A stretch of 64,000 bases of DNA from an uncultured Candidatus Saccharibacteria bacterium (GCA_964356795.1 CAYHIK010000005.1:10767-74766), one strand, 5' to 3'. Shown: positions 1-9,421, numbered from the stretch's first letter. The notes: a model not told the origin generated them from the letters alone. A program made the numbers and translations.

Positions 1-677
1 CGCTTCGCAATTTCTTGAAGTATCTCGCAAAGCGTCAAATCAAATCGGTGGCACCCGAGCGGGTTGAGCTGGGCAAGCAAGAAGACAGGCAGGTGAGTTT
101 CCTGGAGCCTAGCGAGCTTGAGCGATTACTCGAGGCACCCGAGGGTGGCGACTTACCTGCGCTTCGCGACCGCGCAATGCTGGCTATGTTGTTCTCGACC
201 GGCATGCGCGTGTCGGAGTTGTGCTCACTTAATCGTGACATGGTGTCCATTGAGCGGGGAGAGGTGTCGGTGCGAGGAAAGGGTGGCAAGGTGCGCCCAG
301 TCTTCGTTTCCGAGGATGCCGCAGAGCACTTGAAGGCATACACGTCAGCGCGCGTCGATATAGACCCCGCGCTCTTCATCCGCATTCCGCGCAACAAGTC
401 ATTTGGGAAGTACGACAACCTGCGCCTCACTTCGCGCTCTATCCAGCGCATCGTGCATCAACACGCGACTGCTGCGGGCATCGTGGGCAAGCAGGTGAGC
501 CCACACACGCTGCGCCATTCATTTGCTACCGACCTTTTACGCAATGGCGCAGACATTCGCTCCGTGCAGGCAATGCTTGGCCACTCAAGCGTGACTACTA
601 CGCAAATTTACACCCATGTGACCGACAAAGGCCTCCGCGAAATCCACGCAAAGTTTCTAAAGGGACCGAAGAAATAA
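1..677 (+). CDS. Tyrosine site-specific recombinase, XerC/XerD-like. The frame is open to the window edge, so the gene is 5'-truncated and only the C-terminal ~220 aa are present.
   Basis: C-terminal catalytic region with conserved R...HxxR...Y spacing (LRHSFATDLLRNGADIRSVQAMLGHSSVTTTQIYTHV) and the LRDRAMLAMLFSTGMRVSEL core-binding motif. The frame continues to nt 1 with no stop. Confidence 0.8.
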   Translation, partial: LRNFLKYLAKRQIKSVAPERVELGKQEDRQVSFLEPSELERLLEAPEGGDLPALRDRAMLAMLFSTGMRVSELCSLNRDMVSIERGEVSVRGKGGKVRPVFVSEDAAEHLKAYTSARVDIDPALFIRIPRNKSFGKYDNLRLTSRSIQRIVHQHATAAGIVGKQVSPHTLRHSFATDLLRNGADIRSVQAMLGHSSVTTTQIYTHVTDKGLREIHAKFLKGPKK

Positions 678-707
678 AAAGCGAGCGCGTGAGGCGCTCG
701 CTGGGAG

Positions 708-1139
708 TCAGAGCTTCTTCATTTCTGTGGCGTAGAGAAGCATTTCTCGAGCGCCTCCACATATGCATCTGAAATGCACCTCGTATTGTCGCGCATGCAT
801 ACCGTTGAGTGCTCCGCCGAGCCACTTGCTGTTGTACTCCTCATCTGGCGGGTTCGGTGAAAGCACGCGGGCTACGACTGCCTCGATGCGGAATGAGCCC
901 TTCTTTTTGCTACACCTAGCCAGTTCGCGCCACGTAACCCTATCGCCAAGGGCAAACTTCTTTGGCTCTGTAGGCATTGCCGCGCATTTTTGTGCTTGCT
1001 TGAGAGTCGCATAGCCCGTACGGCAGATGTTGCAGAGGAACTCTACTTGCGTTCGCCTGCGTCGGATGATTTTACCGAGCTTCTTGTCCTGAATTTTGTC
1101 CATCTCCCACTCCCTTCGCCACCACTGCAATTTTATCAA
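708..1139 (-). CDS. Hypothetical protein with paired Cys motifs (CNIC..C, CICGG); possible zinc-binding protein.
   Basis: Long ORF in the gap between the recombinase and the amidotransferase; no recognisable family. Start uncertain (internal Met MDKIQDKK). Confidence 0.35.
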   Translation of the reverse strand: MIKLQWWRREWEMDKIQDKKLGKIIRRRRTQVEFLCNICRTGYATLKQAQKCAAMPTEPKKFALGDRVTWRELARCSKKKGSFRIEAVVARVLSPNPPDEEYNSKWLGGALNGMHARQYEVHFRCICGGAREMLLYATEMKKL

Positions 1140-1168
1140 GGTTCGTTCCTTGCGAAGTCGCGGAAAGT

Positions 1169-1927
1169 ATGCACAATATCTACTATATGTGCAAGGTACT
1201 CGTGCCTATGGCGACGCGGGGCGGGAAGGGGGAAGAAATTGGCGCGCTGAACTATGCGCGAATTCCATATGTGCGCCAACTCGTAGAGCGGGGGCTTGAG
1301 CCACGATTCGTGTCGATGCTGATGACGCCCGTAATGATCGCGCGGGCATACGATGAATCCGCTGGCATCCTCTGTATGGGTGGGGGCGATATTAATGCGC
1401 GCATGTATGGGCATACGAATCATGTACGGAATGACCGCGCAGAACCCGAACGCGACGTTATCGAAATCGCCCTGATTCGTATGGCGATGGCTGACCGGAA
1501 GCCAGTGCTCGGCATTTGTCGTGGCATGCAGGCAATTGCGGTAGCATCAGGCGGAACACTTCATCAACACATTCCAGATATCGTGCCCGACGAGGAGCAT
1601 GGTATTGGAGAGGGGAATGGCTACGATGCGCTTCGAGAGCGGGCATATCACGCGGTGCGTCTTGATGCCGACTCTCGCATTGCACGCATCATGGGTACGC
1701 ACGAGGTTCGTATGAATACGGGGCACCACCAGGCGGTGGCGTCGACGGGCGAGGTGGTCCGCGTATCGGGTCGCTCTCCGATGGGCATTGCTGAGTTCCT
1801 TGAGGGTGTCGATGATTCGTACTATTGTGTCGGTGTGCAGGGGCACCCCGAGGCGCAAGATGATATCGTCGCTCATGCGCTCTTTGATTCTTTTGCGAAC
1901 GCTGTACTAAATAATTCTTTTCGATGA
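1169..1927 (+). CDS. Class I glutamine amidotransferase-like / peptidase C26 (gamma-glutamyl hydrolase, PuuD-like).
   Basis: LGICRGMQ nucleophile-elbow Cys and C-terminal GVQGHPE His motif typical of GATase1/C26. Stop overlaps the next start (ATGA). Confidence 0.75.
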   Translation: MHNIYYMCKVLVPMATRGGKGEEIGALNYARIPYVRQLVERGLEPRFVSMLMTPVMIARAYDESAGILCMGGGDINARMYGHTNHVRNDRAEPERDVIEIALIRMAMADRKPVLGICRGMQAIAVASGGTLHQHIPDIVPDEEHGIGEGNGYDALRERAYHAVRLDADSRIARIMGTHEVRMNTGHHQAVASTGEVVRVSGRSPMGIAEFLEGVDDSYYCVGVQGHPEAQDDIVAHALFDSFANAVLNNSFR

Positions 1928-2439
1928 ATCAGAAAAAACTCATCATGATAGTTGTGGGATTGCTCGTGGTCGGTGCGGTGAGCTCCTATGGAAGCCGATA
2001 TTTTGCCGAGCGATCTATTGAGGGTTCGATCGAGGATGCGACTGGCGGTCGCGTGAACGTTGATAGCGATGGAGGTGATGTGACGATAAAGACTGATGAC
2101 GGTACCTGGACTTCAAGCGATGATTCGCTTCCCAAGGATTTTCCGAACGATGTTCCTGTGTATCCGGGCGCATCGATACAGGGTTCTATCGGCACGACAA
2201 GCGGAAGCGAGGGGAATGGAAACTATGTCGGACTCGAATCGACAGACGCATTTGCTGTCGTAGTCGCATGGTACCAGAAAGAGGTTGCTGAAAAGGGGTG
2301 GAGTATCGTGTCAAACCTCAACGTAGACAACGTTGTCAGCTTGAGTGCATCGAAGGATAATCGAACACTTGTGGTGAGTATCACCAAGGACGCTGATTCT
2401 GGAAAGGTTGGCATTGGCCTCTTTGTGTCGCAGAAGTAA
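1924..2439 (+). CDS. Hypothetical membrane-anchored/secreted protein.
   Basis: N-terminal hydrophobic segment (LIMIVVGLLVVGAV) followed by a Gly/Ser/Asp-rich ectodomain; translationally coupled to the upstream gene. Confidence 0.5.
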   Translation: MNQKKLIMIVVGLLVVGAVSSYGSRYFAERSIEGSIEDATGGRVNVDSDGGDVTIKTDDGTWTSSDDSLPKDFPNDVPVYPGASIQGSIGTTSGSEGNGNYVGLESTDAFAVVVAWYQKEVAEKGWSIVSNLNVDNVVSLSASKDNRTLVVSITKDADSGKVGIGLFVSQK

Positions 2440-2579
2440 TGGGGGCTCGAATAGGAGTGAGCTATTGCGTAGAGGGTCAAAAGTGTGTTACGGTGCAAGT
2501 GTATTGACTGGTATGCCGACTCTTTCGTGGTCATACGGCGCCTCTGGTGTCGTAGTCGTGCGGCGAGCGGTCATAAATC

Positions 2580-2738
2580 ATGGACGAGAAGAAATGTTCC
2601 TCATGCGAAGGCATTGAGTTCGCAGATGGTAAGTGTGCGAAGTGTGGCGCTGAAGAGCCAAAGGTAGAGGTTTCTGCACCAGCAGAGGTCTCTGAGCCTG
2701 TAGAGGCTCCTGCACCAGAAGAAACGCCCGCACAGTAG
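2580..2738 (+). CDS. Small zinc-ribbon protein (52 aa, CxxC-x9-CxxC) with a Pro/Glu/Ala-rich tail; absent from the ORF track because it is under 60 aa.
   Basis: ATG at 2580, stop TAG at 2736-2738, four Cys in zinc-ribbon spacing, immediately followed by an intrinsic terminator. Confidence 0.45.
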   Translation: MDEKKCSSCEGIEFADGKCAKCGAEEPKVEVSAPAEVSEPVEAPAPEETPAQ

Positions 2739-2750
2739 TCTGTAGCAAAA

Positions 2751-2779
2751 AACCGAGTTCATCCGAGCTCGGTTTTTTA
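2751..2779 (+). terminator. Rho-independent terminator downstream of the small zinc-ribbon ORF.
   Basis: AACCGAG...CTCGGTT stem (contains the palindrome CCGAGCTCGG) followed by TTTTTT. Confidence 0.6.
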
Positions 2780-2782
2780 ATG

Positions 2783-2979
2783 TGTGCTCTCGGCAGGAAT
2801 CACCCTCCACTCTCGGCGTCGCCAGTCGCGACGTCTCGGTTTCAGGCTCCCGCCCTCGCGGTGTCGGCTTCTACCGCCACATCGCTCCGGGCTTCGATTC
2901 CTGCCGACGGGATAGCATCTGCAAAACAACGCCGAGCCAAATGGCTCAGCATTGTTTTGATGTGCTCTCGGCAGGAATC
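2783..2979 (-). repeat. Repeats derived from the tRNA-Arg 3' end: 19-bp direct repeats at 2783-2801 and 2961-2979, plus an inverted 15-bp copy (TTCGATTCCTGCCGA) at 2893-2907.
   Basis: The identical string tgtgctctcggcaggaatc occurs twice in the same orientation; the second copy is the actual tRNA-Arg 3' end. The reverse-sense T-arm/acceptor fragment lies between them. Confidence 0.7.
2925..2957 (-). terminator. Hairpin terminator following the tRNA-Arg 3' end on the minus strand.
   Basis: Nested inverted repeat (CAAAACAA...GAGCCAaatGGCTC...TTGTTTTG) followed by a T-rich stretch in minus orientation. Confidence 0.45.
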
Positions 2980-3034
2980 GAACCTGCATTTCCGGCTTCG
3001 GAGGCTAGCGTCCTATCCATTGAACGACAAGAGC
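2963..3034 (-). tRNA. tRNA-Arg (anticodon CCG).
   Basis: Manual cloverleaf fold: acceptor GCTCTTG/CGAGAGC, D-arm GTTC/GGAC, anticodon loop CTCCGAA, T-arm GCAGG-TTCGATT-CCTGC. One A-C mismatch in the anticodon stem. CCA not encoded. Confidence 0.8.
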
Positions 3035-3045
3035 TGACATTGCGG

Positions 3046-3129
3046 TGCCTGGGGTCGGACTCGAACCGACACGGCCTTGCGGCCACAACATTTTAAGTGT
3101 TGCGAGTCTACCGATTTCTCCACCCAGGC
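3046..3129 (-). tRNA. tRNA-Leu (anticodon UAA), type II with a long variable arm.
   Basis: Acceptor GCCTGGG/CCCAGGC, anticodon stem CAACA/TGTTG with loop CTTAAAA, variable arm TGGCCGCAAGGCCGT, T-arm GTCGG-TTCGAGT-CCGAC, discriminator A. Confidence 0.85.
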
Positions 3130-3141
3130 AGAAATGAACTG

Positions 3142-3214
3142 AGGTGCCGGCGGGATTTGCACCCGCGAATGTCGGTTTTGCAGACCGATGTGTTAGCTAC
3201 TTCACCACGGCACC
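3142..3214 (-). tRNA. tRNA-Cys (anticodon GCA).
   Basis: Acceptor GGTGCCG/CGGCACC, anticodon stem TCGGT/ACCGA with loop CTGCAAA, T-arm GCGGG-TGCAAAT-CCCGC, discriminator U73 as expected for Cys. Confidence 0.85.
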
Positions 3215-3892
3215 ATTACGCATTCTCAAATACCTACGCATCACCGCTCTCTTTCTTTCAAGATATAGATGATGGGGCACTCTTCTGTACAAGAAGGTGC
3301 ACAATATAATACTATCATGAGTTGAATATCGCAATTGGAAGGATCGATGTGATACGCTGATCTTTCTCTTTTGTAGCTCAAGTCTCGCTCTTACGACCTC
3401 TTCAAGGCCGCAAAGGAAGTTTCGACTTCCTGAGGTGAAGATAGTCGACAGGCGTTTTAATATCCGCTGGCCTCTCTTTCCTGTGCCCATTTCTAGGTAA
3501 ATACATCCATCACCATCAAGATATCCTCGGATGAAATGAGCCAGATACGAGGATGGTACGTTTGGGAAGGGAATTGTCAGTGATTTATTTGGGTAAAGGC
3601 CCAACCTTGTAAGATCGTCGAAAATCTTATGACTCCCTATCCTTAGCGTATAGCGTGGCTTCCCAGGATATTTGACATCGTGTCGCAATGGCGTGATGGT
3701 ATGCTCGGAGCCCATCCACTCTCGCATGCGTTCAAGCATTATCCTGTCAGTGCTCGTTACGCTTGTATATTTCCCACGCATATACGGAGCATCCGTGAGG
3801 GATCCGTCGGCATAGAGGTAACCGAGAAGATAGGCCATTCTTGGGTGCCACCTGGAAAAGAAGTCCTCATTGACGGCATATTTTATCCCCAC
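3197..3892 (-). CDS. Free-standing double-motif LAGLIDADG homing endonuclease.
   Basis: Two LAGLIDADG motifs (LLGYLYADGS near residue 22; IRGYLDGDGC near residue 125) about 100 aa apart, as in monomeric I-SceI/I-DmoI-type enzymes. The last 6 codons (GAVVK*) are encoded by the first 18 nt of tRNA-Cys. Confidence 0.8.
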   Translation of the reverse strand: MGIKYAVNEDFFSRWHPRMAYLLGYLYADGSLTDAPYMRGKYTSVTSTDRIMLERMREWMGSEHTITPLRHDVKYPGKPRYTLRIGSHKIFDDLTRLGLYPNKSLTIPFPNVPSSYLAHFIRGYLDGDGCIYLEMGTGKRGQRILKRLSTIFTSGSRNFLCGLEEVVRARLELQKRKISVSHRSFQLRYSTHDSIILCTFLYRRVPHHLYLERKRAVMRRYLRMRNGAVVK

Positions 3893-3930
3893 GCACCAAT
3901 TATAGGTGGTAATAGGTAGCTATGTAAACT

Positions 3931-5478
3931 CTATAACGACTGCGCGACCTGCGCTTCGGTGATGAACTCTATTGTATCACCTTCCTGAATTTTGCCGTCG
4001 AATCCTGAGGTGTCAATGCGCATACCACACTCAACGCCTTGTCCAACTTCTGACACATCTTCTTTTTCCTGCTGAAGGCTCGTGATTTTCCCAATACGTG
4101 TGGGCGTCTCGCCGCGCATGAGATCAGCAATTGCACCCTTCTTCACGACACCCGAAACGACACGCCCTCCAAGGATAATCGTGCGAGCTTCGGTCTTGAA
4201 GATTGCAAGTACGCGGAGTTTTCCGACGACGGTGCGCTCGGTGGTGCTGGGTAAGAGTGTGGTGAGTTCATTTCGAACCGCTTCGATGAGTTCGTAGATG
4301 ATGTCGAATGAGCGGATGATGATTGCGTCGCGCTCGGCAAGTTTCTGTGCAGCGGATTCAGTTTGCACTCGGAACCCAATTACGATGGCTCCCTTCGCGG
4401 CGGCGGTCTTCACGTCTGCCTCGGAGATGTTGCCAATGCCAGAGCTGAGCACGCGTACGCCGACCTGCTCGCTCTTGATGGCGCCCAGTGACAACTCGAT
4501 TGCTTCCAGCGAGCTTGCAACGTCTGCTTTGAAGATAACATTCAGCGTGAGGCGCTTTGTATCGGCGGTGTATTCACCGCGGTAGGTATCAAATGCCACA
4601 GGCGGGGGAGTGACCGAATCCGCGGCGAGCTCTTCGGCTGCTTTCTTTGCGCCCGCGGTTCGGAATTGCTCGCCAACGCGTGGCGCCTCTTGCCATCCCG
4701 TAATCACTACGGGTTGCGAGGGGCGTGCCGTATCAATGATGACGCCATTAAAATCTTCCATACTCTTCACTTTGCCGACGACATGACCAACCACAATCCA
4801 GTCGCCGACGCGGAGGATGCCGTGTTGCACGAGTGCTGTTGCCACATATCCTCGACGCTTATCGAGATTTGATTCGATGATGATGCCATCAGCTGGCCCA
4901 CTCACGTGCTCCTTGAGTTCAGCGAGTTCAGCGACGAGGAGCACCATCTCGAGAAGTTCGGGTATTCCTGCACCAGTTTTTGCAGAGATTTCAATTGCGG
5001 GAGTTTGCCCGCCCCACTCTTCGACGAGCACATCTTCTTGGGCGAGGTCTTGCTTGACCTTGGCGGAGGTAGCGCCTTCTTTGTCTATTTTGTTGATTGC
5101 GACGATGCAGGGGATGCCAGCGTCTTTGATGATGCGGATTGCTTCTTTGGTCTGCGGTTTTACCGATTCATCGGCAGCGATGACGAGAATAGCAATATCG
5201 GCAACTTTCGCACCGCGGCTTCGGATTGCAGTAAACGCTTCGTGGCCCGGGGTGTCGAGGAACGTGATGAGTTTGCCATTCGCTTCTGCTTGATAGGCGC
5301 CGATGTGTTGAGTGATACCCCCTGATTCGCCCTCAATGACATTCGCTTTACGAATGGTATCGAGGAGCTTCGTTTTGCCATGGTCAACATGCCCCAACAC
5401 GACCACGACGGGAGGACGCAACGTTTCCGCTGATTTTTGAGTGGTTGAGGGTGCCATAGCGACGTTGAAGGATACCAC
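3931..5478 (-). CDS. infB: Translation initiation factor IF-2 (short form starting at the G domain).
   Basis: G1 motif VVVVLGHVDHGKTKLLD, DTPGHEAF, NKID, plus the conserved C-terminal beta-barrel domains. Confidence 0.9.
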   Translation of the reverse strand: MVSFNVAMAPSTTQKSAETLRPPVVVVLGHVDHGKTKLLDTIRKANVIEGESGGITQHIGAYQAEANGKLITFLDTPGHEAFTAIRSRGAKVADIAILVIAADESVKPQTKEAIRIIKDAGIPCIVAINKIDKEGATSAKVKQDLAQEDVLVEEWGGQTPAIEISAKTGAGIPELLEMVLLVAELAELKEHVSGPADGIIIESNLDKRRGYVATALVQHGILRVGDWIVVGHVVGKVKSMEDFNGVIIDTARPSQPVVITGWQEAPRVGEQFRTAGAKKAAEELAADSVTPPPVAFDTYRGEYTADTKRLTLNVIFKADVASSLEAIELSLGAIKSEQVGVRVLSSGIGNISEADVKTAAAKGAIVIGFRVQTESAAQKLAERDAIIIRSFDIIYELIEAVRNELTTLLPSTTERTVVGKLRVLAIFKTEARTIILGGRVVSGVVKKGAIADLMRGETPTRIGKITSLQQEKEDVSEVGQGVECGMRIDTSGFDGKIQEGDTIEFITEAQVAQSL

Positions 5479-5517
5479 AGAAAATGTGGTATAGCAACGA
5501 TTTGATTGTGCGGACGC

Positions 5518-5838
5518 TTAGAGAATTCCTTCCTTGCGAAGGGCGGCTACAATGGAGTAGTCGGTGCGACCCGACTCATGCCGGTGCTTTAAGTCAGCTT
5601 CAATGACGTCCCAGATGGATACTTTGACGATGTGATCGTTGTCGACTTGGATGGGGAGCTTTTCCATTTTGTGGACGTGTTCAGTGATGTGGTGGCCCTC
5701 GTTGTCTACGAGATCGTAGATGAAGTACTGAGTGTCTTCTCGAAGATTTGCATCGGGATAGCGTTCGCGCAACTCAGCCATACGAGTTTCGATCTTTTCA
5801 ATAGAACGTTCTCCGCTTGGTGTCTCGTGGTGTTTCAT
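5518..5838 (-). CDS. Hypothetical protein (106 aa). The track ORF was trimmed to the internal ATG that abuts the upstream gene.
   Basis: Begins MKHHETPSGERSIEK; it starts 9 nt after the stop of the upstream membrane-protein gene. The track's 188-aa version overlaps that gene. Confidence 0.5.
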   Translation of the reverse strand: MKHHETPSGERSIEKIETRMAELRERYPDANLREDTQYFIYDLVDNEGHHITEHVHKMEKLPIQVDNDHIVKVSIWDVIEADLKHRHESGRTDYSIVAALRKEGIL

Positions 5839-5846
5839 GGGTGACG

Positions 5847-6275
5847 CTATTTGTACGATGAACGAATCTGGAACAAGACGTACAGCGAAATGCCCGTGCC
5901 AATCAAGAATCCAAAGATGTCGAAGCGGATAAGCGAGCCAACTGCATTCAAGAGTGTGCTGTAGTATAGGAGCTTCCAGCCTGATGCGCGGTGAGCAAAG
6001 AGTCCAGAAACGGCGAGCGCAAGACATACCGCACTTGCAAGCGTGAGAACAGCGCCAAGAATGCCCCCGCCAGCGTACATCCATGCACCCGATGCAAGCA
6101 TCATCTTGCCCGCCATAGCGCTAAAGCCAAACAATGCCAGAATGAACGGCAATGCAAGCACGATACTTACGAGTGCGTAGTACGGAGCTACCTTTATGAG
6201 AAACGACTTAACGTTTGCAGGGAGACTGGGGAGGCCCGCAAACAGATCCGATAACATTTTTTCGAGTTCCTTCAT
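5847..6275 (-). CDS. Hypothetical integral membrane protein (about 4 TM helices).
   Basis: Strongly hydrophobic segments; likely in an operon with the 106-aa downstream gene. Confidence 0.55.
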   Translation of the reverse strand: MKELEKMLSDLFAGLPSLPANVKSFLIKVAPYYALVSIVLALPFILALFGFSAMAGKMMLASGAWMYAGGGILGAVLTLASAVCLALAVSGLFAHRASGWKLLYYSTLLNAVGSLIRFDIFGFLIGTGISLYVLFQIRSSYK

Positions 6276-6340
6276 ATAAATATGATATTAATACGTGCCA
6301 CTATGGTATCACGAGCGCGTGGGGGATGCTATGGAAACTG

Positions 6341-6981
6341 TGCGGAGAGGGTGGGATTCGCCCTCAATTCTTTCGGAAAAAATTTGGGGGCTATCCATAA
6401 AAACTAATTCAGTTTTGAGTAAACTATCTTAAGCATTTCTTGCGGAGATAATTTACTACTATCAATTATACAAAAGTCGTCAAAAGATTTCGACTGCTGT
6501 GCTTTGAAGGTGAAGTCGAAACGATTTTTGTCAAAATCTTTACCCCTGCTTTCGTCTCGCTCCTTCACTCGTGAATGTAATACATCATAAGGTGCAATGA
6601 GAGAAAACTTGTGGAATTGAACACCATACTCATTTGAAATCATTTCGAGCCTTTTCAAGCGTTCTTCTGAAATGCCACTATCAATTACAGCATTTTTATT
6701 TTGCTCAAAAACTCCTTTCAATTTTTCAGTTATAATCTCAAACGCTCTTTTGTTGTCGCTATCTATCGAATCGGTTCTTTCAAGAAGTTTTCTCTCATTG
6801 TCCAAACTGAAAAATTCTGTATTAGAAAGATTGTTTTTGAGCAATTCTGAAAGTGTAGATTTTCCTGAACCTTTTGGCCCATCAAGAAGAATTAGATAGT
6901 TTTTCATATTAAACTTTCAATATTTCTAGTTCTCATATAACTTTTCGTGCAACTCTCTATTTGCGGAGAGGGTGGGATTCG
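6341..6981 (-). mobile_element. tRNA-associated integrated islet: a ~600 bp AT-rich (~30% GC) segment carrying a P-loop kinase gene, bounded by 20-bp direct repeats of the tRNA 3' end (att-like).
   Basis: tgcggagagggtgggattcg occurs at 6341-6360 and again at 6962-6981 (the 3' end of the tRNA at 6964-7050). GC content of the intervening DNA is far below the window average. Confidence 0.55.
6404..6907 (-). CDS. P-loop NTPase / small-molecule kinase-like protein (Walker A GPKGSGKST).
   Basis: N-terminal Walker A motif followed by a kinase-like architecture; very low GC and AT-rich codon usage relative to neighbours. Confidence 0.6.
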   Translation of the reverse strand: MKNYLILLDGPKGSGKSTLSELLKNNLSNTEFFSLDNERKLLERTDSIDSDNKRAFEIITEKLKGVFEQNKNAVIDSGISEERLKRLEMISNEYGVQFHKFSLIAPYDVLHSRVKERDESRGKDFDKNRFDFTFKAQQSKSFDDFCIIDSSKLSPQEMLKIVYSKLN

Positions 6982-7050
6982 AACCCACGAGACTCGTGAG
7001 AGTCCGGCGGTTTAGTAAACCGCTGCTTTCAACCACTCAGCCACCTCTCC
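6964..7050 (-). tRNA. Type II (Ser-like) tRNA with anticodon loop TTACTAA, formally anticodon ACU (A34); discriminator G73.
   Basis: Acceptor GGAGAGG/CCTCTCC, D-arm GCT...AGC, anticodon stem GCGGT/ACCGC, 18-nt variable arm (GGACTC-TCAC-GAGTCT), T-arm GTGGG-TTCGAAT-CCCAC. Aligns position-by-position with bacterial tRNA-Ser but has A rather than G at position 34. Confidence 0.7.
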
Positions 7051-7084
7051 AGGGGTGAATACTAGACCACTCTATACAATCTTT

Positions 7085-7117
7085 CCGAATTTTAAAACCC
7101 CAACATCACGAAGATGT
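7085..7117 (-). terminator. Rho-independent terminator for the minus-strand gene at 7130-7561.
   Basis: CCCCAACATC...GATGTTGGGG 10-bp stem followed by a T-tract in minus orientation. Confidence 0.5.
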
Positions 7118-7129
7118 TGGGGTGGTTAA

Positions 7130-7561
7130 TTAGGGCCTGCTTGTTTGCGTAGACGCCGCTCGCAGTAGTGGGGCGAAGCGGGCGGTGAGCGATGGGAAGA
7201 TTCTGACCAAATTCGTCAAAATGTCCGGTAGTGCTTGATGGACCAGCTGGACGTGACTCATTTCGATCGCGCTGGATCCCCAGTCGGCCGAGTAGGCGTA
7301 CACACCACGACCTCCCACGTGAACAGAAGCGTTAATTCCGACGTGGTCTCGCTTACACATGATGATTTCCCAGCTGAGCCCGGGAGTGGTGAATGCGCAA
7401 ATGATCTCGTGATAGCGAAAATGGGCGACATCCTGTTTGGTGAGGAATCCTCGGGCGATCCCGATGATAGCATCGATTTCCCATTTCATCTGGTTAAGTC
7501 TTTGAGAGCCCGCCAGAATTTGCTGGATTTGCTTCATGTTAACTGCAATTTCGTTTTCCAC
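7130..7561 (-). CDS. Hypothetical protein (143 aa).
   Basis: ORF with normal GC and a downstream terminator; no recognisable motifs. Confidence 0.5.
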   Translation of the reverse strand: MENEIAVNMKQIQQILAGSQRLNQMKWEIDAIIGIARGFLTKQDVAHFRYHEIICAFTTPGLSWEIIMCKRDHVGINASVHVGGRGVYAYSADWGSSAIEMSHVQLVHQALPDILTNLVRIFPSLTARFAPLLRAASTQTSRP

Positions 7562-7735
7562 TGATTCGGCTCCTGTATCCAGGGCCCCCTATCGGGGTCG
7601 GTTGTGAACGTGCTGCTACTGGCGGGGACGATGTCCCGAAATTAGAACCAAAACGGCTTAATTTCAGGAGCGTTGATAAAATGGTACGGGATTTAAGGCG
7701 AATATTCAACGAAAATCCTGCCTTATTCGATATTC

Positions 7736-7930
7736 CTACTTTCGCGCAGAAACAGTATTAACTATCTGCTCAACTTCTTTATCTGTAACCTTTGAGCCCG
7801 AAAGGCGGGCAGATGCACCAGTGGAGGCTATAAGCGTGGCACGACGAAGTTCCGCCAGACGTTCTGATGAGATGCCAGTACTCTTCTTTATGTGCTTAGA
7901 TTTTGTCATAGAAATGTTCTTTTTAAGCAA
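7736..7930 (-). CDS. Small basic hypothetical protein (~57-64 aa).
   Basis: Start overlaps the stop of the upstream hydrolase gene by 8 nt (translational coupling); AT-rich. Weak support. Confidence 0.35.
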   Translation of the reverse strand: MLKKNISMTKSKHIKKSTGISSERLAELRRATLIASTGASARLSGSKVTDKEVEQIVNTVSARK

Positions 7931-8489
7931 CTATATCTTGAAACTCCTTAATTAATATTGGAGCTTCAATAAAGCCGTCACTTTCAGAAATATGTCCGGC
8001 ATCATGAAGCACTGTAATCTTTGATCCCAACTCTGCAAATTTCTCCTTATTTTCCTCAAATGCTCCGAACGGATCATTATCAGAAATAACCAATGTCGAT
8101 TTCGGAAGCACTGTCTTAACTTTCTGGATATTGATAGGAGTTTCTAACCAAGGTTTGGCTATTTCTTCTGTTTCTTCATCCTCCAAATTTTCTAGATTAA
8201 ACCAGCCAGCCACAAAGAGTGCTCCACCAACAGGAGTATTAATATTTTCTAGGTATCTTAAGATAGTCTGACAACCTATTGAGTGACCAATAAAATAAGT
8301 ATTGTTATCCGGAGTGCCGACAACTTCCGCAAGTTTAGCCACCCATTTTTCAATGACAGGTGTATCAATATCTGGCATGTCAGGCAACAAAACTTGGTAT
8401 CCTAATTTCTCCAACTCTGTTTTAAGCCAAGGTCTCCAATCGCCTTGTGCCCCTGCCATCCACTGATGAATAATAATTACTTTTTTCAT
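7923..8489 (-). CDS. Alpha/beta-fold serine hydrolase of the RBBP9/YdeN-like family.
   Basis: GHSIG nucleophile-elbow motif (GxSxG) in a ~190-aa alpha/beta hydrolase with Asp/His later in the sequence; low GC. Confidence 0.7.
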   Translation of the reverse strand: MKKVIIIHQWMAGAQGDWRPWLKTELEKLGYQVLLPDMPDIDTPVIEKWVAKLAEVVGTPDNNTYFIGHSIGCQTILRYLENINTPVGGALFVAGWFNLENLEDEETEEIAKPWLETPINIQKVKTVLPKSTLVISDNDPFGAFEENKEKFAELGSKITVLHDAGHISESDGFIEAPILIKEFQDIVA

Positions 8490-8550
8490 GTCAGTTCGAA
8501 TCCCTTTGGGGGTGTACCTAAAAAATCATTTATTTACTTAATAAAATCAC

Positions 8551-8642
8551 TGGCGGAGGCGGGAGGATTCGAACCTCCGAGGGGTTTTGAAGCCCCTGCC
8601 TCTTTAGCAAAGAGGTACATTAGACCACTCTGACACGCCTCC
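8551..8642 (-). tRNA. tRNA-Ser (anticodon GCU), type II, with encoded CCA.
   Basis: Acceptor GGAGGCG/CGCCTCC, anticodon stem CCTCT/AGAGG with loop TTGCTAA, long variable arm CAGGGGCTTCAAAACCCCTC, T-arm GGAGG-TTCGAAT-CCTCC, G73, CCA. Confidence 0.85.
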
Positions 8643-8698
8643 AGTATTATGTATTGCACTGACGGAACGTCATATTCTAGCACGTTTTTTGTGCCTCA

Positions 8699-9421
8699 TC
8701 AACCGTGCGCGATGGTGATGGCGGACACGGTGTGTGCGCCTGATTCCTTGAGTGCGGACGCACAGTTTTCCAGTGTGGCTCCGGTGGTGCGTACGTCGTC
8801 AATGATGACAAAGTTTTTTCCACGAACCTCCGAAGCATCGTTCACGCTAAATGCTCCCGACATATTTTGGATGCGCTCCTCGCGCGAGTGAGTTGTGACT
8901 TGAGAGTCGGTACGACGATTTCGAGTGAGGATGGTGTCGTCGAATGGCATCGCGGCGATTGCGGCAAATTCTTTTGCGATAAGAGATGCTTGGTTGTACC
9001 CGCGTTCACGGAGGCGTGCGCTGTGGAGGGGGACGGGGATGAATACCGGATTGTGGCCCAACAATAAATGAGGGCGAGATGATGAGATTCCGAGTGCGTA
9101 TGCTGTGGCACGCGCGAGGGGGACTGCTAATCCGCGGATTCCTCGGTATTTCAGATGATAGATTGCGGTTTCGACGACGCCGTCCATAAGAAATGCCGAT
9201 ACGCAGCGGTCGATGGTGGATTTCGGCGAGTGCTGATACGACGCGATTTTAAATCCTCGAACACACTCATTGCACAGGTCTATGCCGATGGTCGAGCATC
9301 CAACGCATCGCGCGGGCCAGAGCGTGTCGATGAGCCATGTTTGTAGTTCGCGTATATTCATCCACACATGAGATAAATTGATTGTCCATCGTGGTATACT
9401 TGAAATACGCATGGCATTCAA
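8699..9421 (-). CDS. comF: ComF family competence protein (phosphoribosyltransferase domain with N-terminal zinc finger).
   Basis: N-terminal Cys cluster (CVGCS...CNEC) and C-terminal PRTase motif VIIDDVRTTGATL. Confidence 0.8.
   Translation of the reverse strand: MNAMRISSIPRWTINLSHVWMNIRELQTWLIDTLWPARCVGCSTIGIDLCNECVRGFKIASYQHSPKSTIDRCVSAFLMDGVVETAIYHLKYRGIRGLAVPLARATAYALGISSSRPHLLLGHNPVFIPVPLHSARLRERGYNQASLIAKEFAAIAAMPFDDTILTRNRRTDSQVTTHSREERIQNMSGAFSVNDASEVRGKNFVIIDDVRTTGATLENCASALKESGAHTVSAITIAHG

Follow-up and report, generated by a model that had tools for sequence, protein, structure and literature searches.

The locus and its gene boundaries

A 64,000-nucleotide (nt) stretch of DNA from an uncultured Candidatus Saccharibacteria bacterium (GCA_964356795.1 CAYHIK010000005.1:10767-74766; hereafter the window), a member of the Patescibacteria whose genome derives from Hainich groundwater, contains a predicted LAGLIDADG homing-endonuclease gene placed between infB and a cluster of tRNA genes. 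The open reading frame (ORF) spans positions 3197–3892 on the minus strand, has a GTG start and encodes 231 amino acids; its assignment draws on the ORF list, Pfam, AlphaFold2, Foldseek and the ratio of non-synonymous to synonymous divergence (dN/dS). A spacer of 38 nt (3893–3930, minus strand) separates the infB stop codon from the endonuclease start, and the last 18 nt of the ORF (3197–3214; GGTGCCGTGGTGAAGTAG, translated G-A-V-V-K-stop) are also the 5′ end of the gene for tRNA-Cys(GCA) (3141–3214, minus strand; found by ARAGORN and by Rfam at 64.5 bits). The ORF borrows its stop codon from the tRNA gene: the TAG that ends it is located within the D-loop of tRNA-Cys. A preliminary description of the window, made from the sequence alone, had already proposed this arrangement, and the ORF list, ARAGORN and Rfam bear it out.

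The gene begins earlier than annotated. The public gene call (P0001, 213 amino acids) starts at an ATG, residue 19, 18 codons (3839–3892) after the GTG at 3892. Residues 1–18 are conserved across the family, with G2, K4, F12 and W15 invariant in 64 sequences, and the GTG is therefore the true start. The public call thus begins 18 codons late, and the gene is nameless in the source databases.

Both flanking genes, infB and tRNA-Cys, are complete. The left-hand flank, infB (3931–5478, minus strand), encodes initiation factor 2 (IF-2; 515 amino acids, with Pfam matches to GTP_EFTU, IF-2 and EF-G_D2). On the right-hand side, tRNA-Cys is followed on the same strand by tRNA-Leu(TAA) (3044–3129) and by tRNA-Arg(CCG) (2962–3034), the last gene of the tRNA cluster, both from tRNA calls.

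A predicted monomeric LAGLIDADG enzyme

The translated protein has two LAGLIDADG motifs. Motif 1 (AYLLGYLYADGS; 3800–3835, minus strand) includes the catalytic residue Asp29, and motif 2 (FIRGYLDGDGC; 3503–3535, minus strand) includes the catalytic Asp128. A28, D29 and G30 of the first motif and G123, Y124, D126, G127, D128, G129 and C130 of the second are invariant in all 64 sequences aligned. The motifs had been read earlier as LLGYLYADGS and IRGYLDGDGC with the spacing of a monomeric enzyme, and they do lie about 99 residues apart. In alignments of 16 and 64 homologues, D29, D128 and about 35 further positions are invariant, and the window protein keeps every one of the family-invariant residues, both catalytic aspartates included.

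A search with profile hidden Markov models, which the preliminary description had suggested as a check, assigned the protein to the Pfam family LAGLIDADG_3 (PF14528; 34.1 bits against a cut-off of 22.5, E = 3.4e-8). The 'endonuclease' profile phrog_4645 also matched (E = 1.5e-40), and an NCBIfam profile search of the protein gave no match. Sequence searches of the PDB returned weak matches only (E = 0.025–0.065), so a fold search was needed. The AlphaFold2 model, built with 64 homologues (predicted local distance difference test score 92, predicted template modelling score 0.89), is confident up to residue 228. It consists of two helix–strand domains, with the LAGLIDADG helices at residues 17–29 and 114–128 and β-hairpins after each. 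Searched against the PDB with Foldseek, the model matched LAGLIDADG enzymes only: I-Tsp061I at the top, followed by the TliVMA intein endonuclease domain, I-AniI, I-SmaMI and I-SceI. Two acidic motifs, a profile match above threshold and a predicted pseudo-symmetric two-domain fold place the protein among the monomeric double-motif LAGLIDADG homing endonucleases.

The gene also appears to stand free. Across positions 1–9000, Rfam found no group I or group II intron and no structured RNA other than tRNAs, even at E ≤ 1, in agreement with the earlier view that the ORF is not set in a recognisable intron or intein; a promoter-like motif ends 6 nt ahead of the start codon, and the neighbouring genes are intact. 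Profile match, predicted fold, catalytic residues and the lack of an intron or intein together support the assignment as a free-standing monomeric LAGLIDADG homing endonuclease.

A fixed address 5′ of tRNA-Cys

The protein belongs to a large family. At E ≤ 1e-3 it has more than 1,355 homologues, each a database entry that stands for a protein cluster at 90% identity; the best 120 of these are nearly full length and 48–69% identical to the window protein (mostly about 50%), and wherever a taxon-level name was given for one of these 120, it was within Patescibacteria. A library clustered at 50% identity yielded 94 clusters below 1e-30 and 4,696 below 1e-10, and up to 412 loci encoding a relative turned up when one genome from each GTDB species was scanned. 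Free-standing LAGLIDADG genes had been called uncommon in bacteria; this needs refining, as they are not rare in Patescibacteria (more than 1,300 clusters at 90% identity, up to 412 species loci). Published literature on LAGLIDADG genes in Patescibacteria (otherwise called the Candidate Phyla Radiation, CPR) or with tRNA-Cys yielded no description of this family, and the tRNA-Cys-linked genes apparently form a large, undescribed group.

Our analyses of genomic context rest on the best 80 of the 412 loci, 79 of which have downstream sequence and can be assessed. In all 79, which represent many lineages of Patescibacteria, tRNA-Cys(GCA) lies directly 3′ of the endonuclease gene on the same strand. 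The adjacency seen in the window is thus not incidental, and it goes further than had been noticed there. The ORF stop falls anywhere between 25 nt before the start of tRNA-Cys and 128 nt inside or beyond it; in a recount that includes the window, 59 of 80 ORFs end inside or beyond tRNA-Cys, and an overlap of 18 nt, as in the window, is the commonest class (30 of 80). The next gene after tRNA-Cys in carrier loci is usually tRNA-Leu(TAA). Upstream, the neighbour may be infB directly, infB–rbfA, or the gene for ribosomal protein L19, a 3D-domain protein, an M23 peptidase or a flavoprotein; because this neighbour differs between loci, the constant partner is tRNA-Cys.

The overlap itself is not specific to the endonuclease, since a host gene ends in the same way: the rbfA ORF of locus L107 (113–469) likewise runs into tRNA-Cys and takes the D-loop TAG as its stop codon (...NGAVAK-stop). 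To judge from these sequences, an ORF that ends at the D-loop TAG is a by-product of tight packing.

Sporadic presence at a variable site

The preliminary description had suggested comparing the infB–tRNA spacer among relatives. To obtain an unbiased sample, eight relatives were picked by IF-2 similarity alone (IF-2 62–80% identical to that of the window). None of the eight has a LAGLIDADG gene 5′ of tRNA-Cys, and the presence of the gene is thus sporadic. Four relatives (L084, L085, L289 and L290) have simple spacers, with infB followed after 3–125 nt by tRNA-Cys. The site is likewise empty in L087 and L291, in which other genes lie between tRNA-Cys and tRNA-Leu(TAA): an HNH gene in L087 (4742–5230) whose ORF reaches 15 nt into tRNA-Leu, and in L291 (4754–5398) a second type of LAGLIDADG gene, which stops 46 nt short of tRNA-Leu and the product of which is 33% identical to the window protein. 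A counterpart of the L291 gene is found in L107 (553–1052); in the sole comparison made, its product is 42% identical to the endonuclease of L013.

In L086 (4537–4895) and L288 (4528–4858), a GIY-YIG gene of 76–80 codons occupies exactly the site between infB and tRNA-Cys. It is preceded by a leftover 5′ half of tRNA-Cys, which ends ...TCTG in the anticodon loop, and followed by a complete tRNA-Cys; the leftover half in L086 is broken by an insertion in the D-loop. The arrangement suggests a second type of cassette, which would insert at the anticodon loop and carry a tRNA-Cys gene with it. Altogether, the interval from infB through tRNA-Cys to tRNA-Leu in relatives holds GIY-YIG, HNH, second-type LAGLIDADG, serine recombinase or acetyltransferase genes, and endonuclease genes of Patescibacteria may have a general preference for sites just 5′ of a tRNA gene.

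A sample of metagenome contigs gathered by tRNA pattern gave a similar picture: the endonuclease gene lies upstream of tRNA-Cys in one locus (L140) and is absent from 38, each of which has at least 750 nt of upstream sequence and about ten of which look Patescibacteria-like. On a neighbour-joining tree of IF-2, three carriers (the window, L003 and L004) form a clade with six non-carriers in 200 of 200 bootstrap replicates, and within it the three carriers are never monophyletic.

Replacement of a block between sister genomes

A clean replacement is seen between the carrier L003 and L288, the GIY-YIG-bearing genome that is its sister on the IF-2 tree (IF-2 88% identical as protein, infB 79% identical as DNA). 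Over the final 87 nt of infB the two do not differ at any position (L003, 5878–5964; L288, 4441–4527). Such a tract is very unlikely to arise by chance, because at a background identity of 79% its expectation is 0.79^87, or about 1e-9; bordering the variable cassette site, it resembles the trace of a recent recombination (co-conversion) event. Similarity is lost right after the infB stop codon and regained at tRNA-Leu (84 of 85 positions identical), and the block exchanged in L003 comprises the 5′ motif described below, the endonuclease gene and tRNA-Cys. By analogy, the left boundary of the cassette in the window would lie directly after the infB stop codon.

The tRNA genes fit an exchange of this extent. 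tRNA-Cys is 97–99% identical among the window, L003 and L004, and about 70% identical to the different-type tRNA-Cys of close non-carriers, whereas tRNA-Leu is only 74–83% identical between the same three carriers. It is therefore probable that the endonuclease gene and tRNA-Cys move together as a single block. A site that is fixed in all 79 loci, absence from all eight sampled relatives and block replacement between sisters make up the sporadic presence that marks a mobile gene.

Divergence and selection

Divergence of the endonuclease was compared with that of four to six syntenic housekeeping genes per pair of loci, by distance methods only. The ratios contradict one another. The endonucleases of L012 and L014 are 77% identical, against 49% for IF-2 and 46% for rbfA, and those of L015 and L021 are 82% identical, against 54% for IF-2; the endonucleases of L009 and L074, by contrast, are 48% identical, against 69% for IF-2, and those of L048 and L065 are 63% identical, against 82%. 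Ratios of this kind fit horizontal movement better than a steady vertical clock.

Selection on the protein sequence has been maintained. dN/dS lies between 0.04 and 0.19 in 38 of the 40 closest pairs (finite estimates), although most of these pairs are near saturation, with dS above 1. The endonuclease is thus shown, at the level of coding sequence, to be under purifying selection.

An element-borne 5′ motif

Most carriers share the motif TTGCAGTATAnnnnATTACCACYTATAAT, which ends about 6 nt ahead of the GTG or ATG start. Its core, ACCAC[CT]TA[TC]AAT, occurs upstream of the endonuclease gene in 29 loci and nowhere else in 0.8 Mb searched on both strands. The equivalent in the window, TTTACA-18 nt-TATAAT (3899–3928, minus strand), is the best promoter-like site of the region, with 11 of 12 matches in the promoter scan. 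No Shine–Dalgarno sequence precedes the GTG and the motif ends only 6 nt from it, so the mRNA is probably leaderless; the gene may also be co-transcribed with the three tRNAs.

Two other roles for the motif were considered and set aside. It is absent upstream of tRNA-Cys in loci that lack the endonuclease gene, and a resident tRNA-Cys promoter was rejected on these grounds. Terminal repeats or a target duplication, formed by the motif and the 5′ half of tRNA-Cys, are marginal: scores exceed the 95th percentile of shuffled sequences in 10 of 80 loci for inverted repeats and in 3 of 80 for direct repeats.

A variant elbow in tRNA-Cys

The tRNA-Cys of the window has an A in place of the usual G18 (D-loop AAG-TAG-C) and a G in place of the usual U55 (T-loop TGCAAAT). 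The two elbow positions covary perfectly among the 80 loci, 44 of which have xAG with TGC and 36 xGG with TTC. The A18/G55 form also occurs in Patescibacteria without the endonuclease gene (L095, L117, L190, L203 and L204). Empty junctions join infB to an A18/G55 tRNA-Cys in L095 and L193 and to a canonical one in L289 and L290. We considered it as an immunity allele and found no support, because it occurs without the gene and because similar endonucleases (L012 and L014) adjoin both types of tRNA.

A side observation concerns another tRNA on the far side of infB: ARAGORN calls a tRNA-Ser with an unusual ACT anticodon at 6963–7050 of the window, and makes the same call upstream of infB in relatives L084 and L085.

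A model for the cassette

We consider it likely that the gene belongs to a family of monomeric, free-standing LAGLIDADG homing endonucleases that extends across Patescibacteria and is located at the 5′ flank of tRNA-Cys, and that the gene is an active or recently active selfish cassette whose product is predicted to cleave DNA. The mobile unit would comprise the promoter-like motif, the endonuclease ORF and, often, the adjoining tRNA-Cys. With the motif so close to the gene, transcription would probably begin at the start codon itself, and the mRNA would have no leader. The enzyme would then cut cassette-less genomes at or near the 5′ boundary of tRNA-Cys, and the break would be repaired from a cassette-bearing copy, with the upstream gene (here the 3′ end of infB) and the tRNA-Cys/tRNA-Leu region serving as homology arms. 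Repair would copy in the endonuclease gene, with tracts of varying length and frequent co-conversion of tRNA-Cys. A carrier would be immune because the 3′ end of the ORF would replace the upstream half of the target.

Several observations weigh against this model or limit it. At shallow depth the endonuclease follows its host: 83–86% of clear triplets agree with IF-2, and in a Mantel test of endonuclease against IF-2 none of 2,000 permutations reached the observed value. Given this concordance, much of the inheritance is vertical, and part of the incongruence in rates could be rate variation. No case of presence/absence polymorphism within a species was found; the three contigs from the species of the window all carry the gene. 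No decayed copies were seen, in a sample biased towards intact genes. Target-site deduction from empty sites gave no site, the sequence upstream of tRNA-Cys being not conserved. Finally, tRNA-Cys is nearly the same in the carrier L012 and the non-carrier L095; a site lying wholly within the tRNA would be self-cleaved, so the target probably spans the 5′ boundary of tRNA-Cys. Shallow tracking of the host alongside incongruent pairs indicates that inheritance is mixed, as expected of a homing element that becomes fixed and is then carried vertically.

Alternative explanations

The alternative that survives best is a domesticated LAGLIDADG protein with a host role linked to tRNA-Cys, such as a maturation factor or an operon regulator, inherited vertically and lost in some lineages. 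Domesticated LAGLIDADG proteins have precedents in WhiA and the LAGLIDADG maturases. We favoured a domesticated core gene at first, on the strength of synteny in 79 of 79 loci and conservation like that of IF-2. The invariant link to tRNA-Cys, the strong purifying selection, an average conservation that equals or exceeds that of IF-2 (mean p-distance 0.49 for the endonuclease and 0.55 for IF-2) and a phylogeny that agrees with that of IF-2 at shallow depth all speak for it. It was dropped as the preferred explanation because the gene is absent from all eight relatives sampled by IF-2, some of them interleaved with carriers on the IF-2 tree, and because an unrelated GIY-YIG gene occupies the site in a sister genome. 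In addition, relative rates are inconsistent (from 77% against 49% to 48% against 69% identity), either elbow type of tRNA-Cys is found both with and without the gene, no intron accompanies it, and both catalytic aspartates are kept, unlike in WhiA or pure maturases. We therefore regard domestication as unlikely.

A second alternative is that the gene, rather than being an autonomous homing cassette, is cargo of a larger integrative element that would target the tRNA cluster by means of a tyrosine recombinase and att-like tRNA-Arg repeats. The preliminary description had called the site a small hotspot of mobile DNA and pointed to att-like repeats at the tRNA genes. The varied mobile genes in the corresponding interval of relatives support a genuine hotspot, but the repeats belong to tRNA-Arg and no connection to the endonuclease was shown. 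The 3′ end of tRNA-Arg(CCG) (2961–2979) is repeated exactly over 19 nt in direct orientation at 2783–2801, 178 nt downstream of the gene, and an inverted copy of 15 nt is located between these two (2893–2907). All lie within 180 nt downstream and resemble what an att-type integration or excision event at tRNA-Arg would leave behind. An ORF for a XerC/D-like tyrosine recombinase lies close by (15–677, plus strand), and a serine recombinase gene is located beside the cluster in L086. However, the repeats are on the far side of the cluster, whereas the replaced block runs from the infB stop codon to tRNA-Leu, ending before that gene and short of tRNA-Arg. Moreover, a Phage_integrase-type gene is found a few kilobases downstream of infB in L084, L087, L288 and L289, relatives that have no endonuclease gene, and it is thus not linked to the endonuclease. 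The pair of endonuclease gene and tRNA-Cys also occurs in unrelated contexts in other lineages, and an origin as integrative cargo is very improbable.

The gene in the window might also be an inactive relic, decaying and no longer selected. The clade of the window has evolved faster in the endonuclease than in IF-2 (p-distance 0.29–0.40 against 0.20–0.23), and the window protein lacks about 12–15 C-terminal residues found in most relatives. Against this, the ORF is intact, all family-invariant residues are present, the predicted fold is confident to residue 228, and dN/dS between the window and L004 is 0.10, albeit at a saturated dS of 2.3. Decay to a relic state is highly unlikely.

Finally, the ORF might be part of an intron or intein that has escaped recognition in some host gene. 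Nothing specific speaks for this beyond the usual habit of LAGLIDADG genes, including those of rRNA insertions in CPR bacteria (PMC11270868), and it seems scarcely credible given that no intron family matched, that the ORF comes with a start codon and a promoter-like motif of its own, that infB and tRNA-Cys are complete, and that empty sites in relatives are plain spacers.

Implications and comparison with known systems

If the gene is a homing cassette, as we consider likely, several consequences may follow. One shared address, the 5′ edge of a tRNA gene, in all 79 assessable members is unusual for cellular LAGLIDADG genes, and the family would supply a naturally occurring set of related meganucleases whose shared target region can be guessed. 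It would also be a clear case of selfish elements passing, and of tRNA alleles being replaced, among ultra-small bacteria thought to swap DNA by natural competence. In a more speculative version, which we hold to be doubtful, the cassettes, LAGLIDADG and, at the same spot, GIY-YIG, would act as gene drives on an essential and probably single-copy tRNA-Cys, time and again replacing resident alleles with their own, and the A18/G55 form could have spread or even arisen as a hitch-hiking or cleavage-resistant allele. Because the endonuclease stop codon lies within the tRNA, processing of a co-transcript by ribonuclease P would remove it, which in this version would couple expression to tRNA maturation and to rescue by transfer-messenger RNA.

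Among enzymes of known structure, I-Tsp061I (PDB 2dch; I-DmoI type) and TliVMA resemble the window enzyme in having two LAGLIDADG helices with acidic residues, the same two-domain fold and a similar size. Foldseek relates the predicted model to this group with E = 1e-9 and template modelling scores of 0.61–0.68, at a sequence identity of 16–19%. These enzymes are located in archaeal rRNA introns or inteins, whereas the window gene is bacterial, stands free directly beside a tRNA gene and comes with a promoter-like motif of its own.

The nearest relatives outside the family are phage LAGLIDADG proteins of PHROG 4645, which on IMG/VR contigs are 27–37% identical (mostly 28–35%), most of them aligning along almost the entire protein; an additional stretch of about 90 amino acids is found at the N terminus of many. 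Unlike the tRNA-Cys-linked family, they have no tRNA gene within 300 nt in any of 80 viral loci. Phage relatives as vectors of the cassette were rejected, given an identity of about 30% and this lack of neighbouring tRNAs.

LAGLIDADG genes are also known in CPR bacteria from rRNA insertion sequences, inside 16S and 23S rRNA genes and often in group I introns (Tsurumaki et al. 2024, PMC11270868); that study makes no mention of tRNA-linked or free-standing copies. They share with the tRNA-Cys-linked family the phylum, the superfamily and a sporadic, homing-like distribution at conserved RNA-gene sites. They lie within rRNA genes, whereas the window gene has no intron and lies at the 5′ flank of tRNA-Cys.

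The closest functional analogue of the window cassette is SegB of phages T4 and T6, a free-standing GIY-YIG enzyme from the tRNA gene region that breaks tRNA-containing DNA (PMC13096335, citing Brok-Volchanskaya et al.). SegB differs in being a GIY-YIG rather than a LAGLIDADG enzyme in belonging to a phage rather than a cell, and in not being joined end to end to a tRNA gene. Yet SegB is free-standing, adjoins tRNA genes and spreads with co-conversion of its tRNA neighbours, much as we propose for the cassette at tRNA-Cys.

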